A stretch of DNA of 64,000 nucleotides from the sequence record MN445185.1; one strand, written 5' to 3'. Source of the DNA: Escherichia phage vB_EcoM_EC001. The notes under the pieces are model-generated. The model had not been told where the DNA came from. It did not search any database and saw only the letters and a program-made list of their open reading frames with translations. The position numbers and the translations under genes are program-made. Below are positions 5,678-20,956 of this stretch, in pieces (position 1 is the stretch's first letter; each line of letters opens with the position of its first letter).

Positions 5678-6418
5678 ATGTTGCGAGTCGTGAGTGAATC
5701 GCTCACGCTCCACACACAAAGTCTGATTAACTGTGTGGAGCAATACGGATGGATGTCATGGATGGCAACGAACCGTGAGTTCGGTGCTGCGCCCATGGAA
5801 GATTACGACGTGTTGTACAAGTGGGGATTTGAAGCGGCTTGTGATGTTGTGGCAGAGCTGGTTACTGAAACAATTGCGCGTTACAATGCAAGATGTGATG
5901 AACCGATGCCTAAACAAGTCCCGCCGCAAATACCTCCGCTACCGACAATCGATCGTGAGCAGTGTCGAATCTGGACAATGGAAGAGTTGTACGACGAACA
6001 CGTTAGAATGCTGAAACCGAACGAGCTAATAACCGGTGCGTTGAACTGGTTCTTACATCGTTTCTGGACAGAGTTGGTCGATGTGGCGGGTGACGAAGAT
6101 AATTGTTCTCAGGTTATTTGGTACGATCGAGCGATGTTTCATCGCAGTCTTAAAGATCGCAGTCTCTGCAACCTGTATATTGTTGACCCGTGTGAAGACA
6201 TTGTAAGGGTGGCAGAAGGTAACTCTTATTCGGACTTGGTGATGCCTGTGGTAGAAAAACCGATGGGTATTTTCCTGCAGGGAGACGCTTGGGTTTTAAC
6301 GGATGATATCTCGGGCTACCTGCTGGACCCGGATGACATTCACTCGGACGAACCTGACACCATCGAGTATTTTCACTTTACAGAACAGGCAGCACGCTTC
6401 TTGCATCTCTTAAAGTAA
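5678..6418 (+). CDS. hypothetical protein (246 aa)
   Basis: ATG at 5678 with SD GAAGAGG, 1 nt after upstream stop; track ORF from 5618 overlaps the preceding gene. Confidence 0.6.
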   Translation: MLRVVSESLTLHTQSLINCVEQYGWMSWMATNREFGAAPMEDYDVLYKWGFEAACDVVAELVTETIARYNARCDEPMPKQVPPQIPPLPTIDREQCRIWTMEELYDEHVRMLKPNELITGALNWFLHRFWTELVDVAGDEDNCSQVIWYDRAMFHRSLKDRSLCNLYIVDPCEDIVRVAEGNSYSDLVMPVVEKPMGIFLQGDAWVLTDDISGYLLDPDDIHSDEPDTIEYFHFTEQAARFLHLLK

Positions 6419-6420
6419 TC

Positions 6421-6442
6421 TGAGATAGATATTATCTACAGG
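6421..6442 (+). promoter_or_regulatory. candidate phage promoter, AT-rich motif family A (TGAGATAGATATTATCTACAGG)
   Basis: Intergenic, ~30 nt upstream of the 6472 start; shares CTSAGAYAKATATTAYCT core with sites at 14950 and 46607. Confidence 0.4.
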
Positions 6443-6471
6443 GACGTAACCTTAAGGAGAATTTATTCACG

Positions 6472-7206
6472 ATGCTTAAAGTCGAAGTGCCAGTGCTTTT
6501 AAACCTCACGCCCCAGTTCTTTGAAGCGTTGTTCGAAAAGCATTGGCCCGCGTTCGCGAAGAACGAACTAAAGGATAACCCACAGTGGTATCCTCTGCGC
6601 GATGAATTCAAGTATACAGCCATCAACGTCTGTATAGAAGTCTTCACTGCGTGGTTACAAGAGATGTACGACTGCATCAACACCGAACGGCTGTTCACGC
6701 TAGAACATGTAGAGATTAATGTTGTTGACGTCTACGAAGGTTACTCCTACGAAGAAGGCATTACTGCCACGGGGTTAAGCCAGCAAGACGTTGAAGAACA
6801 AATCTTTGCGTGGATCGAGTGGTTCACGGAAAAGTTGATGCTGGCTGATTTTGTCACGCAGGTGGAAGATGTATTCATCCCAATGTACGAGCGGTTAGCT
6901 GAGATACGTCGTAACCATCGACTGCTCGGTTACTGGTATGACACTTATACCACCTCCTCAACACTGTGGTCTTCCGCTACTGCCGCTTTTGGCATAACTG
7001 AAGGCGATTACGATGTCGTTCATTCTGGCCCTTGGCAGTACGGTTTCGGCACACTGTGGCACGAACTGACCGATGTCATGTGTCTGGACTTTTATCTCTG
7101 TGAAGGTAAGTTTTACACGGATAACTGCGTGAGCCAAATTCCGAATGGTGCGACGGTGGTGATGTGTCGCATCCGTAAAGAAGTCTCTAAGAAACTAAAC
7201 TACTGA
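6472..7206 (+). CDS. hypothetical acidic protein (244 aa)
   Basis: Long ORF with SD AAGGAGA upstream. Confidence 0.6.
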   Translation: MLKVEVPVLLNLTPQFFEALFEKHWPAFAKNELKDNPQWYPLRDEFKYTAINVCIEVFTAWLQEMYDCINTERLFTLEHVEINVVDVYEGYSYEEGITATGLSQQDVEEQIFAWIEWFTEKLMLADFVTQVEDVFIPMYERLAEIRRNHRLLGYWYDTYTTSSTLWSSATAAFGITEGDYDVVHSGPWQYGFGTLWHELTDVMCLDFYLCEGKFYTDNCVSQIPNGATVVMCRIRKEVSKKLNY

Positions 7207-8559: not shown

Positions 8560-9098
8560 AAATATTCATTGATTTACTCGATGACGAATTTCGCGAAATA
8601 TTTCCAGCGGCGTTGTTCGAGTTTAAACGCAAGTGTGAAGACTATCTAATACCGAAGAATATCGATCGTCAGCACCTCGCCGGGCTTATCTCTGCGGCGT
8701 ACGTCAACATCGCGGTAAATGAAGTTCATCAACTCGCCCAGCGTATTGCGTGTTTCGAATACAACGACGAAGACATTGAAGACGGCTTCCTGCAGTCTAA
8801 GATGGGTCGCTTCTCACTCGAACTCAAGACCGATGAAGTTATTGATAAGGTCGGTAAAGCGTTTGATGAAATGAAAGACATCGAAATGATGATTAAAATG
8901 TCTGGACCGGAAGCTGGGCCGTTGAAAGAAGCGTGGGAAAATCTCAACCGCGAAGGGTATAAAAAGATGTATATGGAGGAGTTCACCACTATGCTACGTC
9001 ATCTCGAAGCGCAGATCTGGGAGCATATCGTTTCACGTCTGAAAGAAATACTGATTGTGGTCGAACCAATGCAGCCCATCACTATTGGCAATTTCTAG
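8556..9098 (+). CDS. hypothetical protein (180 aa)
   Basis: ATGA start/stop overlap with upstream gene (translational coupling). Confidence 0.6.
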   Translation: MKIFIDLLDDEFREIFPAALFEFKRKCEDYLIPKNIDRQHLAGLISAAYVNIAVNEVHQLAQRIACFEYNDEDIEDGFLQSKMGRFSLELKTDEVIDKVGKAFDEMKDIEMMIKMSGPEAGPLKEAWENLNREGYKKMYMEEFTTMLRHLEAQIWEHIVSRLKEILIVVEPMQPITIGNF

Positions 9099-9102
9099 TT
9101 AA

Positions 9103-9135
9103 ACGGACACTCTTCGGGGTGTCCGTAGTTTTATT
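9103..9135 (+). terminator. rho-independent terminator
   Basis: Hairpin ACGGACAC..GTGTCCGT followed by T-rich tract. Confidence 0.65.
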
Positions 9136-9149
9136 TTAATCGACCATTA
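9136..9149 (+). promoter_or_regulatory. conserved 14-mer TTAATCGACCATTA (motif family B), candidate phage promoter or 5' leader element
   Basis: Exact 14-mer 17 nt upstream of ATG 9167; identical copies at 46667 and 47536, each 17-19 nt before a start codon. Confidence 0.45.
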
Positions 9150-9166
9150 ATCTAAAGGAGTATTAA

Positions 9167-10090
9167 ATGGACAGCTTTCTTTTTGATTTGGCAGAATCGG
9201 TAAATGTAGATGTAATCGGTATGCGCGAATCCCCGAGTAATTTCTTAAACGGTCTTACTAAAATCGACGAACGTGTGAAATCCAGAAGTGGAGATCCCGC
9301 CATCATCGAGCAATACGCAATAGCCCATTGTGGCGAGATAGGCCAGCACTTTATACCGATTGAGGCGTTCCTAAAGAACTGCTTCGCCGAAGAATGCACC
9401 GCAGACTTCCTGTCTCTTGCCTACGGCTGGCGATACGGGGGTATCCAAATGGAATTTGATCTTAATATTTTTGAACAAGTTCTACTTGGCGACGTTCTCA
9501 CTGAGATACCACGCAGCTGGATAGACAAGATTCCCGGTTGGGCCGTCTCCTTTTCAGTGTGCTATCGCGCTAAAGATATCGGTATCCAAGAAAAGACTTA
9601 CGTTTTCGGTCGGCGAATGTTTAAAGGGAAAGATTGTTTAACAATGATGATTTTTGGAAAACGTATCGAGGGGGAAACCTTTGAAATCGTGGACGTGGGT
9701 GACGGCTTTGTATCCTTGCGTGTGGCGGAAACTGGTACGCCGGCCAATGAGAAAACGTTACGCATTGTCGGCGCTACCATGTTTACATTCTCACTGATCC
9801 CGCACAACCCTACACCCGTCAAACTGAGACAATTAACTGGAAAGAAACGTATCGCCAATTACCACATTGAACCAAAATCTAAACCGACTGTCCTCTCCAC
9901 CGTAAAAGCACAAAGCGAGTATCTTGAAGAATTTGATACTGATACGGAGAAAAGAACACAAGGTAGCAGATGTGCGCATATGCGTCGTGCACACTGGTGT
10001 ACTTACTGGCTCGGTCCACGTGACGGGAATCGGACAAAGATTTTGAAATGGATACCGCCGACATTTGTCAACGGTTCTAAATGCAAATAA
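9167..10090 (+). CDS. hypothetical protein (307 aa)
   Basis: Long ORF with SD AAAGGAG upstream. Confidence 0.65.
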   Translation: MDSFLFDLAESVNVDVIGMRESPSNFLNGLTKIDERVKSRSGDPAIIEQYAIAHCGEIGQHFIPIEAFLKNCFAEECTADFLSLAYGWRYGGIQMEFDLNIFEQVLLGDVLTEIPRSWIDKIPGWAVSFSVCYRAKDIGIQEKTYVFGRRMFKGKDCLTMMIFGKRIEGETFEIVDVGDGFVSLRVAETGTPANEKTLRIVGATMFTFSLIPHNPTPVKLRQLTGKKRIANYHIEPKSKPTVLSTVKAQSEYLEEFDTDTEKRTQGSRCAHMRRAHWCTYWLGPRDGNRTKILKWIPPTFVNGSKCK

Positions 10091-10995: not shown

Positions 10996-11295
10996 ATGAG
11001 AATCAAATTACTGACTCGCGCTTTAACCTCTCGTATCGAACCTGAGATTTACACCACCCCGACGAAGAAGAATACCGATGGTAGTCCGATCGTGGTTGGT
11101 AAAATCCTGAACGTGACCACTCGTGCTGATGGTCAGCGCGTTCTTGAAATCGAAATCGACGAACGTAACCGTAACCGCTTCAAAAGCATTTCTAACATCA
11201 ATCCTAAGGATGACAACCAAGTCACCGAGTGGGCAGAAGTGCATTTCGAAGTTTGGCATAAACGTCGTCTGTTACTCCCACTGAAAAAACGCTAA
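10996..11295 (+). CDS. hypothetical protein (99 aa)
   Basis: ORF immediately upstream of and co-oriented with the recombinase-like gene. Confidence 0.5.
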   Translation: MRIKLLTRALTSRIEPEIYTTPTKKNTDGSPIVVGKILNVTTRADGQRVLEIEIDERNRNRFKSISNINPKDDNQVTEWAEVHFEVWHKRRLLLPLKKR

Positions 11296-11310
11296 TTGAC
11301 GGAGCGCTAA

Positions 11311-12804
11311 ATGGCAGGTCCAGCTAAACAAGTCATGGGTGAAGTGATTCGCCCTCGTTTTAACGTATATACCATCATGGACCACGCTCTCGGTAACTAC
11401 GAGCGCGGGGAAGATGGTTTGTACTACCTCAACGGTGGTTTTGCCCACATCATGGGCTTCGCAGGTCGTGGGAACACCTTTAAGTCTACCTTATTAGACT
11501 TCTGCATTTTCATGATTCTGCAACGTTATAATGCGGCCTGGGGATCGAAATACGATACCGAAGTTACGGCAGCATTAAGTCGTCTGGAAACGGGGTATAT
11601 CTCCGCTGCGAAAGCAAACGGATTAGAAGTATCACCAACAGGCGGCGTGCTGGACCTGATCCACGAAGGTCGTTACAACATGGTTGGCTCGGATATCATG
11701 GCGGGTGAGGAGTATTACTCTGCTTATATCCGTGACGAAGTCGAAAAACGTTTCAAAGAGTACATGGCTGGTAAGGCACGCGAAACACCGTTCCCGGACC
11801 CAATCCGTCGCTCTGCGAAAAAGATTCTCGACCCGTGGTTGTACTCGATTGACTCCCTGTCCGAATGGCACACCTCTTCTCTGGAAGAGAAACATGCCAA
11901 ATCAGAAGTCGGTGATTCTGAACAGAACATCCTGAACGCCCACGATGCGTTGCAGAAATCGAACATGATGAGCCGTTGGCCGTCTGCGTTTGCGCGTGGT
12001 GGTTTCTATATGGGCTTCGTTGCTCAGTTGGCCGACGATGCGGGTAAAGCAATGGCGGCAGGTGGCCGTGGTGGACCGAAGGCGAACGGTAAACTGTTGG
12101 ACGATGCAGGCGATGATCTGAAGTTTGCGGGTATCCCGCGCCGTCAGTTGTCGTTCTTAACTAACTCCCTGCTGGTTGCAACCAAGTCTGGTGAGTTGAA
12201 GCAGGATCAGACTTACAACGCGAAGACCGGTGTAAACGAAGAGAAATACCCGACTGCGCGTTCGAAAGCAATGAATGCTTCGGTGAACGACCTGAAAGAA
12301 ATTGTTTTCACGCAGTACCGTGCGAAGGGTGGTCACACAGGCGTTAAGTTCAAAATGGTCTTCTCGCAGGAGATGGGTCTGCTTTATCACCTCTCTCTGT
12401 GGCATTACCTGAGCGACACACTGAAAGATGAATGGGGCTACAAACGTAGTGGTGCTAACTATACCCTCGATTTGCTACCTGGTACATCTTTCATGCGTAC
12501 CACGATTCGCGACATGTGTGACAGCAACCCGCGTTTGCGCCGTGCGTTGGAAATCACCGCCGCATTAGCGTACATGCAGAATAACTACCACCGACTGGAA
12601 ATGAAATACCATCTCTCACCGGCGGAGCTTTATAAAGTTATCGACGAAAAGTGGGACTGGAATGAAATTCTGGACAATACAGTGGAATACTGGATGTTCA
12701 AGGATCAGGAAGTCAAAGGTGGTAAGCGTTGCTTAACAGCAATGTCATTACTGGCGATGGCCGTGGATGGTCTGGAACCTAAGTTCTTGACTAAGAAGAA
12801 ATAA
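11311..12804 (+). CDS. putative RecA/UvsX-like recombinase ATPase (497 aa)
   Basis: GGFAHIMGFAGRGNTFKSTLLDFCIFMILQRY resembles the T4 UvsX P-loop region GGMQSGLLILAGPSKSFKSNFGLT..YMRQY (from memory), followed by KYDTE versus YDSE; no canonical GK[ST] and no clear Walker B. Confidence 0.35.
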   Translation: MAGPAKQVMGEVIRPRFNVYTIMDHALGNYERGEDGLYYLNGGFAHIMGFAGRGNTFKSTLLDFCIFMILQRYNAAWGSKYDTEVTAALSRLETGYISAAKANGLEVSPTGGVLDLIHEGRYNMVGSDIMAGEEYYSAYIRDEVEKRFKEYMAGKARETPFPDPIRRSAKKILDPWLYSIDSLSEWHTSSLEEKHAKSEVGDSEQNILNAHDALQKSNMMSRWPSAFARGGFYMGFVAQLADDAGKAMAAGGRGGPKANGKLLDDAGDDLKFAGIPRRQLSFLTNSLLVATKSGELKQDQTYNAKTGVNEEKYPTARSKAMNASVNDLKEIVFTQYRAKGGHTGVKFKMVFSQEMGLLYHLSLWHYLSDTLKDEWGYKRSGANYTLDLLPGTSFMRTTIRDMCDSNPRLRRALEITAALAYMQNNYHRLEMKYHLSPAELYKVIDEKWDWNEILDNTVEYWMFKDQEVKGGKRCLTAMSLLAMAVDGLEPKFLTKKK

Positions 12805-19683: not shown

Positions 19684-20103
19684 ATGAACAATATCGCGTT
19701 TGAAAAAGGCGTTGGGTTACTTCTGAACAACACCATCGTCGCTGGCACTAATAACGCTAACTGGGAAGCGTTAGCGCAACGTCTCAAAGACAAGCCTGTG
19801 AAGATTGTGGTAACGAGCGAGCTGCCGTTAAACGGCACGATGGCGGACTGTGGTCCAATGTTTGCGGCGTTTAACATCGACTATGATTGCGGTTCCGCTT
19901 TCTTACAAAACGCCGCGTTACGTAGCCGTCTGTACAGCTGGCGTTTGCTGGGTCCGGTAAGTAAAGCCGCAGGTCAAATGGTTAACCAGGGCACACCGAT
20001 GTCGGGTGTAGAAGACCAGACTATCGCCGTTGTCGTTTCTCGCGCAACCGGCCAGCTTAACTTTGCAATCTGCTACGCGTATCAGGAGGAAGAGTATGCT
20101 TAG
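19684..20103 (+). CDS. hypothetical protein (139 aa)
   Basis: ORF with SD AAGGAGA upstream. Confidence 0.5.
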   Translation: MNNIAFEKGVGLLLNNTIVAGTNNANWEALAQRLKDKPVKIVVTSELPLNGTMADCGPMFAAFNIDYDCGSAFLQNAALRSRLYSWRLLGPVSKAAGQMVNQGTPMSGVEDQTIAVVVSRATGQLNFAICYAYQEEEYA

Positions 20104-20956
20104 TATTATTCAGCAGACTCAGGCGGTTGATGATTGGTACCGGCAAGCGAAGATTTACCAATACGGGACACGCGAGCAGCAGCTAGCCAAGTTCTATCGC
20201 ACATTAGGCGACGTCGCTGAAGGTGTGCAGAAGATGGACAACTTGAAAGTGGCGGCGGCCATGGGTCGCTCTCTTTGGGCGTTCGTTGGTCTGTTGCACT
20301 TCGGCAAGCACACGAACGTGGGAGATTTCGTTATTCCACTGGATGCAGCTATAAAAGACCGCACCACGGGAAACACCAAAGAGTTCCGTCTTCATAACCT
20401 TTTTGTTGTTGCCACCGAAGTGGTTGGACTCATATTGCAAGATGAGCACGAGCCCCACAGCTACGTTACCGAGCTGCATAGTTTGGCGCGACAATACCGA
20501 ATGTTGGCGCGTATCTGCGGCCTGGAATTCGGCCGTGTAATATACAACGGACATCGTGTGCTAATCAACACGAAAGGTGAAATGAACGGCATCGGGTTGT
20601 TTGTTCCCGCGTCTGATGATTTTACTGGCGATAAATTGCCTGGTTCTAGACAGATGTCTGGGCCAGCCATCTGTCTGATGTTCCAGACTGTCCTGGACAG
20701 TTGTGTCGCTACGCACCTTGCGCCCTATTGCCACCGGCCGTTTAAACGCGACGAGTTGCCGACAATCAATGCTGCACTCGCAACTACGTTAAACGAACTG
20801 CTGGACAAATATGTTCGTGACTCAGTGCGCTGGAATCGTATCCTGTTCGAACGTGTACCTGAAATAACCGCAGCCTACACAGATGGCGGTGTGAATGTGG
20901 TGATGAATGATGATCTACTTTACTTATTTGAAAGCTTAAAGAGGGATAGTATCTAA
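20096..20956 (+). CDS. hypothetical protein (286 aa), coupled to thymidylate synthase
   Basis: ATG at 20096 with SD AGGAGGA; stop overlaps the thymidylate synthase start (TAATG); MazG-like pyrophosphatase considered but motif match is weak. Confidence 0.5.

Follow-up and report, generated by a model that had tools for sequence, protein, structure and literature searches.

A highly diverged UvsX/RecA-type protein of SPN3US-like nucleus-forming jumbo phages and a residue-level map of its motifs

The 64,000-nucleotide stretch of Escherichia phage vB_EcoM_EC001 analysed here (sequence record MN445185.1; hereafter the window, to which all phage DNA positions below refer unless stated otherwise) contains a gene at 11311-12804 whose product is a highly diverged RecA/UvsX-type protein of the SPN3US-like nucleus-forming jumbo phages (genus Seoulvirus). 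The encoded protein is 100% identical to gp216 of Salmonella phage SPN3US (SPN3US_0216 / ACQ60_gp050), and we refer to it by that name; at the DNA level the gene is 98.7-99.2% identical to its counterparts in SPN3US, SPLA1a and their relatives. It is probable, at roughly 85% by our estimate, that gp216 is an ATP-dependent RecA-family recombinase which is imported into the phage nucleus and serves homologous pairing in recombination-dependent replication and repair. This reading draws on the orthology, RecA fold and ATPase-motif conservation presented below, and on localisation, fitness and repair phenotypes published for orthologs. The assignment as a UvsX/RecA-like recombinase is already known: a paper from 2017 (PMC5694885) described SPN3US gp216 as a diverged homolog of UvsX. 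The annotation in SPN3US is 'hypothetical protein', but SPLA1a, Asesino and many further records give the gene as 'UvsX-like recombinase' or 'putative UvsX'. The gene is real, and the N-terminus of the 497-residue protein cannot be longer than given because an in-frame TAA (11308-11310) directly abuts the ATG.

11301-11304, + strand: Shine-Dalgarno sequence GGAG, 6 nt 5' of the ATG, read directly from the sequence
11311-12804, + strand: complete open reading frame (ORF) of 497 amino acids plus stop codon, SPN3US gp216

Membership of the family rests on profile comparisons. The protein matches phrog_97, 'UvsX-like recombinase', with an E-value of 2.8e-55 over profile positions 39-347, and this label is not circular because T4 UvsX itself, as encoded in the T4 genome record, belongs to phrog_97 (E=9.4e-105, positions 20-355). 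A profile built from an alignment of 48 family members finds T4 UvsX (PDB: 3io5, E=0.09) as its best match in the PDB and RadA next, both over the block that runs from the Walker A motif to the Glu residue discussed below. Profile-profile comparison with an alignment of 25 T4-type UvsX proteins returns the same block with E=2e-4. These 50-54 columns are all that hhalign recovered in local mode, and its global mode gave no alignment; a collinear path obtained with mact 0.05 was used as a motif map only and not as statistical evidence. Comparison of the family profile with the RecA sequence is not significant (E=0.32), nor is pairwise BLASTP against T4 UvsX (E=0.82), in which the top segment is the P-loop block, and single-sequence phmmer against the PDB gave noise only.

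The predicted structure contains a RecA-fold ATPase core, with the P-loop set in a central beta-sheet. Structural alignment of the model to RecA covers 296 of the 333 RecA residues, and sequence identity to bacterial RecA (e.g. 3cmu, 8amd) in such alignments is 12-16%. A preliminary description made from the sequence alone had called the product a UvsX/RecA-like ATPase and had proposed a profile search and structure prediction as checks; its call holds, with RecA/UvsX similarity present at the profile level and a RecA fold in the predicted structure.

The ATPase motifs can be assigned residue by residue, and with them two candidate DNA-binding loops, as follows.

11455-11490, + strand: Walker A / P-loop of UvsX type, GFAGRGNTFKST, residues 49-60, from the alignment
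11551-11562, + strand: YDTE at the end of strand beta2, residues 81-84, from the alignment
11836-11862, + strand: Walker B strand WLYSIDSLS, residues 176-184, from model and alignment
11905-11958, + strand: candidate L1 region EVGDSEQNILNAHDALQK, residues 199-216, from an alignment that is not significant alone
12004-12030, + strand: strand beta4 FYMGFVAQL, residues 232-240, ending at the sensor residue Q239, from model and alignment
12040-12111, + strand: Gly-rich candidate L2 DNA-binding loop, residues 244-267, disordered in the model
12319-12342, + strand: conserved motif RAKGGHTG, residues 337-344

The Walker A motif reads G52-R-G-N-T-F57-K58-S59. G52, N55 and K58 are present in all 48 members, position 59 is Ser or Thr in every one, and position 57 is Phe in 43, Tyr in three and Gly in two; the two members that thus carry a canonical G-K-S confirm the identity of the P-loop. 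The Phe in place of the second Gly is a shared UvsX-type signature, since the corresponding F65-K66 is invariant across the 25 T4-type UvsX proteins, and the pattern G-x4-F-K-S is common to both families. The earlier wording 'non-canonical P-loop' is therefore apt insofar as the motif departs from the generic GK[ST], but this is the normal form for UvsX. The likening of the P-loop and of YDTE to T4 UvsX was well founded: both align exactly, with G-x4-F-K-S and with YD[ST]E. Of the P-loop glycines, G54 is retained in 44 of the 48 aligned proteins; gp216 keeps both G52 and G54, whereas phiKZ gp152 (5753-7192 of the phiKZ locus) has Ser and Pro there in a more degenerate P-loop, ASRPNNFKT.

Within YDTE, D82 and E84 are invariant in the family. 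E84 aligns with T4 UvsX E92, the spacing from the Walker A Lys to this Glu is 26 residues in both proteins, and judging from the alignment E84 is presumably the catalytic Glu; we take its counterpart in E. coli RecA to be E96. A Walker B motif, described earlier as not obvious, is present in the strand WLYSID181-S182, where D181 (48/48) is accompanied by S182 (47/48) and S184 (45/48) and aligns with VFID143S of T4 UvsX and VVD144S of RecA. The gamma-phosphate sensor position, 239, is His in 42 members and Gln in six, and is aligned to T4 UvsX H195 and RecA Q194. R337, K339, G341 and G344 of the RAKGGHTG motif are likewise invariant in the family alignment. From the order of strands, R337 and K339 would occupy the position of RecA K248/K250 and T4 UvsX K246/R248, the trans-acting ATP-site residues; hhalign does not place the pair confidently. 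Across 48 homologs, down to 26% identity, the presumed catalytic positions K58, S/T59, D82, E84, D181, H/Q239, R337 and K339 are invariant, as one would expect if selection maintains ATPase function.

Both DNA-binding loops are candidate assignments. In the putative L1 region G201 is nearly invariant and N206 and K216 are invariant, and a low-confidence alignment pairs its E-V-G-D-S with E-I-G-D-S of E. coli RecA (158-162). The putative L2 loop directly follows the sensor strand 232-240 and has a predicted local distance difference test (pLDDT) score below 50; its AMAAGGRGGP is aligned to VMGGGTGPMY of T4 UvsX.

The closest functional information comes from orthologs. gp216 is a member of the Chimalliviridae Nlp1 / 'UvsX' nuclear protein family, with orthologs including phiKZ gp152/Nlp1 (30% identity over residues 13-497, E=2e-54) and Erwinia phage Asesino gp238 (88% identity), and in both SPN3US and phiKZ the gene for an RNA polymerase (RNAP) beta-subunit follows two to three genes downstream. 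A homolog is present in 300 phage records, which are essentially those of phiKZ-like jumbo phages, whose hosts include Pseudomonas, Erwinia, Salmonella, Vibrio, Serratia, Aeromonas, Klebsiella and Ralstonia. The Nlp1 proteins (phiKZ gp152, Asesino gp238, PhiPA3 gp175, 201phi2-1 'uvsX', PCH45 gp72 and RAY gp150) are of similar length, 479-497 residues, and have the internal insertions, the short N-terminus and the C-terminal domain in common with gp216; SPN3US-type proteins differ from most of the family in having Gln rather than His at the sensor position, and there is otherwise no substantial difference beyond the P-loop glycines of phiKZ gp152.

The phiKZ and PhiPA3 'RecA' proteins are imported into the phage nucleus, and import of Nlp1 requires Imp1 and Imp2 (PMC11087766; bioRxiv 10.1101/2024.03.27.586873). 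Nuclear localisation has also been shown experimentally for Asesino gp238 and for the RAY ortholog, and the UvsX of PCH45 is nuclear and non-essential. When nlp1 is deleted, phiKZ forms small plaques, replicates more slowly, has a competitive index of 0.05 and is sensitive to the nuclease NucC of the cyclic oligonucleotide-based antiphage signalling system (CBASS), a phenotype which its authors read as loss of recombinational repair (PMC12676376). The gp152 deletion thus has a clear published phenotype despite the degenerate P-loop of that protein.

Set beside T4 UvsX (3io5), gp216 belongs to the same PHROG, has the same Walker A variant at the same distance from the Glu, and shares the Walker B pattern hhhhDS (h, hydrophobic), a His/Gln sensor, a Gly-rich L2, and a core followed by a C-terminal domain; the loss-of-function phenotypes of T4 UvsX and of the gp216 orthologs are comparable. 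The two differ in that gp216 lacks the acidic C-terminal tail and some 20 N-terminal residues including a helix, and in that the gp216 family acts inside a proteinaceous phage nucleus, for which reason it needs to be imported. Relative to bacterial RecA, gp216 has Phe instead of Gly in Walker A, no N-terminal helix, two insertions in the core and extra C-terminal helices. These features lie as follows.

11347-11394, + strand: N-terminal lead-in IRPRFNVYTIMDHALG, residues 13-28, conserved in the family
11563-11835, + strand: clade-specific insertion, residues 85-175, between the presumed catalytic Glu and Walker B
12196-12291, + strand: clade-specific insertion, residues 296-327, in the hairpin between strands 286-295 and 328-338
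12379-12801, + strand: C-terminal domain, residues 357-497, from the model

gp216 exceeds T4 UvsX by 106 residues. Differences were taken between shared motifs, as gp216 relative to T4 UvsX: -8 residues from the N-terminus to the Walker A Lys, 0 from Lys to Glu, +46 from Glu to the Walker B Asp, +6 from Asp to the sensor, +47 from the sensor to R-x-K and +15 from R-x-K to the C-terminus. About 93 of the 106 extra residues therefore lie in two internal segments, and the greater length of gp216 comes mainly from insertions inside the protein, one at residues ~100-175 and the other made up of the enlarged L2 and 296-327. The 'long C-terminal extension' of the preliminary description has to be given up, the C-terminal part being just 15 residues longer. 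The span from the presumed catalytic Glu to Walker B is 97 residues as against 51 in T4 UvsX, and the insertion here is predicted to contain helices at 113-118 and 132-152 and strands at 122-126, 156-163 and 168-173. The second, with the enlarged L2 region, makes up the 47 residues between Q239 and R337. The C-terminal domain resembles that of RecA/UvsX in its arrangement of a helix, a sheet of three strands and helices, and continues with some 65 more helical residues.

At the other end, the lead-in is well conserved (N18 46/48, D24 48/48, G28 47/48), aligns with T4 UvsX 33-45 (RTKIPMMNIALSG) and by eye resembles ...STGSLSLDIALG of RecA. Only 12 residues precede this RPxFN lead-in. Residue 5 of gp216 corresponds to residue 27 of T4 UvsX, so the N-terminal helix is absent and about 20 N-terminal residues of T4 UvsX are without a counterpart. 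In characterising the protein as UvsX/RecA-like, the preliminary description was right about the family and overlooked this truncated N-terminus. In RecA and UvsX, the N-terminal helix provides the protomer-protomer contacts of the filament. Four metagenomic homologs (P0023, P0024, P0026 and P0027), about 53% identical to gp216, are 635-636 residues long, some 140 residues longer than the rest of the family.

Several observations weigh against a canonical recombinase. An N-terminal polymerisation element (the RecA/UvsX helix or the FxxA of Rad51) is absent from gp216, and the short N-terminus is found family-wide. A tandem construct for AlphaFold2 (copy, Gly-Ser linker, copy; multiple sequence alignment of 14 sequences) gave a low-confidence model (pLDDT 65.6, predicted template modelling score (pTM) 0.50) in which the arrangement of the RecA filament was not recovered: Foldseek superposed it on the fused RecA filament chains 3cmt/3cmu with a root mean square deviation of ~30 Å and a query-based template modelling score (TMq) of 0.18-0.19, no better than for a single protomer. 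No UvsY-, SSB- or mediator-like partner was recognised among nine neighbouring ORFs, and we found no paper in the literature that reports ATPase activity, strand exchange or filaments for a member of this clade. Outside the block from Walker A to Glu, neither T4 UvsX nor RecA shows sequence similarity that is significant alone. A Pfam scan of the 497-residue protein returned no family at E<=10, including RecA, Rad51 and T4_UVSX_C; none of 48 relatives reaches RecA or T4_UVSX_C, and weak Rad51 matches occur in only two of the 48. T4 UvsX itself scores 2.9e-12 on the Pfam RecA model (PF00154) and 5.7e-39 on T4_UVSX_C (PF21134). The curated models are missed because the family is too diverged, and we do not treat the miss as evidence against a RecA fold.

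Three other roles for a protein of this kind were weighed. Failure to reach any Pfam model would also fit a catalytically degenerate RecA-fold protein that is retained in the phage nucleus for structural reasons, for DNA binding or in connection with import, and not for ATP-driven recombination. So would the P-loop of phiKZ gp152, in which both Gly positions are replaced, and the fact that the family is known above all as cargo of nuclear import. Yet all the catalytic positions have been kept through the whole range of homologs, and loss of nlp1 in phiKZ is a replication and repair defect, so we regard such a protein as very unlikely. The missing N-terminal helix is a feature of Sak4 proteins too, which are phage-encoded RecA-core proteins and were among the candidates listed in the preliminary description; a Sak4-like protein would anneal complementary single-stranded DNA (ssDNA) and would not invade duplexes. 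However, gp216 is not a core-only protein of ~220 residues with Sak4 as its closest fold, and an annealase of this type seems to us extremely unlikely. It is also unlikely, if somewhat less so, that gp216 is a RecA-fold ATPase which does not form RecA-type helical filaments and works as a ring or other oligomer, for instance a motor resembling DnaB, RadA/Sms or KaiC-type proteins that translocates DNA or drives branch migration, and that it contributes to replication or repair by another route. All three alternatives are disfavoured by the ranking of folds, by the architecture and by the fact that every presumed catalytic position is kept.

For a RecA-family recombinase acting within the phage nucleus, the properties described above suggest the following course of events. 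The protein would be translated in the cytoplasm and then imported into the phage nucleus, where it would bind ATP at the UvsX-type P-loop through K58; hydrolysis would proceed via E84 and D181, with Q239 acting as the gamma-phosphate sensor. With its L1 and L2 loops the protein would bind single-stranded DNA; it would bring about homologous pairing and strand exchange and so support recombination-dependent replication and the repair of broken phage DNA, in the manner of UvsX in T4. We infer that gp216 has ATPase activity, catalyses strand exchange and forms filaments.

How such protomers might come together is a more speculative matter. The clade lacks the N-terminal helix and has two insertions of ~46 residues as well as extra C-terminal helices, and we consider it possible, though doubtful, that it assembles via a different interface, or that one or both insertions form a surface for nuclear import (Imp1/Imp2 in phiKZ).

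The surroundings of the gene contain few recognisable functions. None of the nine neighbouring ORFs that were scanned has a Pfam match, and all belong to PHROGs of unknown function apart from a fragment of the virion RNAP beta-subunit on the downstream side. Genes for an exonuclease and for an RNase H-like protein are located 5-7 kb upstream. A co-oriented ORF (10996-11295, + strand, 99 residues, phrog_10750 of unknown function) ends 16 nt before the recombinase start. The same arrangement is found in SPN3US (gp215) and Asesino (gp237), whereas the upstream neighbour of phiKZ gp152 is divergent. The product of this ORF is a possible candidate for a partner of the recombinase.

Further upstream, about 1 kb (9077-10084) is absent from SPN3US and SPLA1a, where ~32 bp fill the site. 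The segment carries an ORF (9167-10090, + strand, 307 residues) that matches phrog_6160, of unknown function (E=7e-40), and has no Pfam match; in the records of related phages the segment recurs in just two, Salmonella phage JN03 and Escherichia phage Lh1B. With its patchy distribution it has the look of an accessory or mobile gene, situated 1.2 kb upstream of the gene for gp216. Elsewhere in the window, 20162-20956 has no megablast-level alignment with SPLA1a (19784-20590) between flanks that are 93-98% identical; this stretch has been replaced locally or has diverged strongly.

Two further observations concern the distribution of the gene. In another set of jumbo phages, of ~210-260 kb, tblastn finds similarity in the C-terminal third only (12247-12780, residues 313-490; 30-37% identity), with matches for example in Klebsiella Miami and YC1, Aeromonas D6 and PS1, Vibrio Aphrodite1 and USC-1, Kosakonia Kc263 and Erwinia AH04, some of which are annotated 'UvsX-like recombinase'. 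The part conserved best across clades is therefore the C-terminal beta-strands and domain and not the P-loop. Among the Salmonella phages SPFM1, SPFM8, SPFM9, SPFM12 and SPFM15, the gene is split or frameshifted in several records: P0030-32, P0042 and P0045, the proteins concerned, combine high bit scores with a BLASTP coverage of only 5-13%, and tblastn finds the gene in four to six pieces. We take these split genes to be probable errors of assembly and not true pseudogenes.

SPN3US is a well-studied genetic model jumbo phage, and gp216 would be its recombinase. Its orthologs are standard cargo for marking the phage nucleus and for delivering proteins into it, and the phiKZ ortholog protects against the CBASS nuclease NucC. 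The identification itself adds nothing new to the field; the useful output is the map of Walker A and B, the Glu, the sensor, L1 and L2, the R-x-K pair, the insertions and the missing N-terminal helix. Should the proposal of a different interface or an import surface prove true, the clade would represent a RecA-family recombinase whose structure has become adapted to working inside a protein shell. The map defines concrete mutants, and with them the question of how a RecA-family protein assembles without the canonical polymerisation element.
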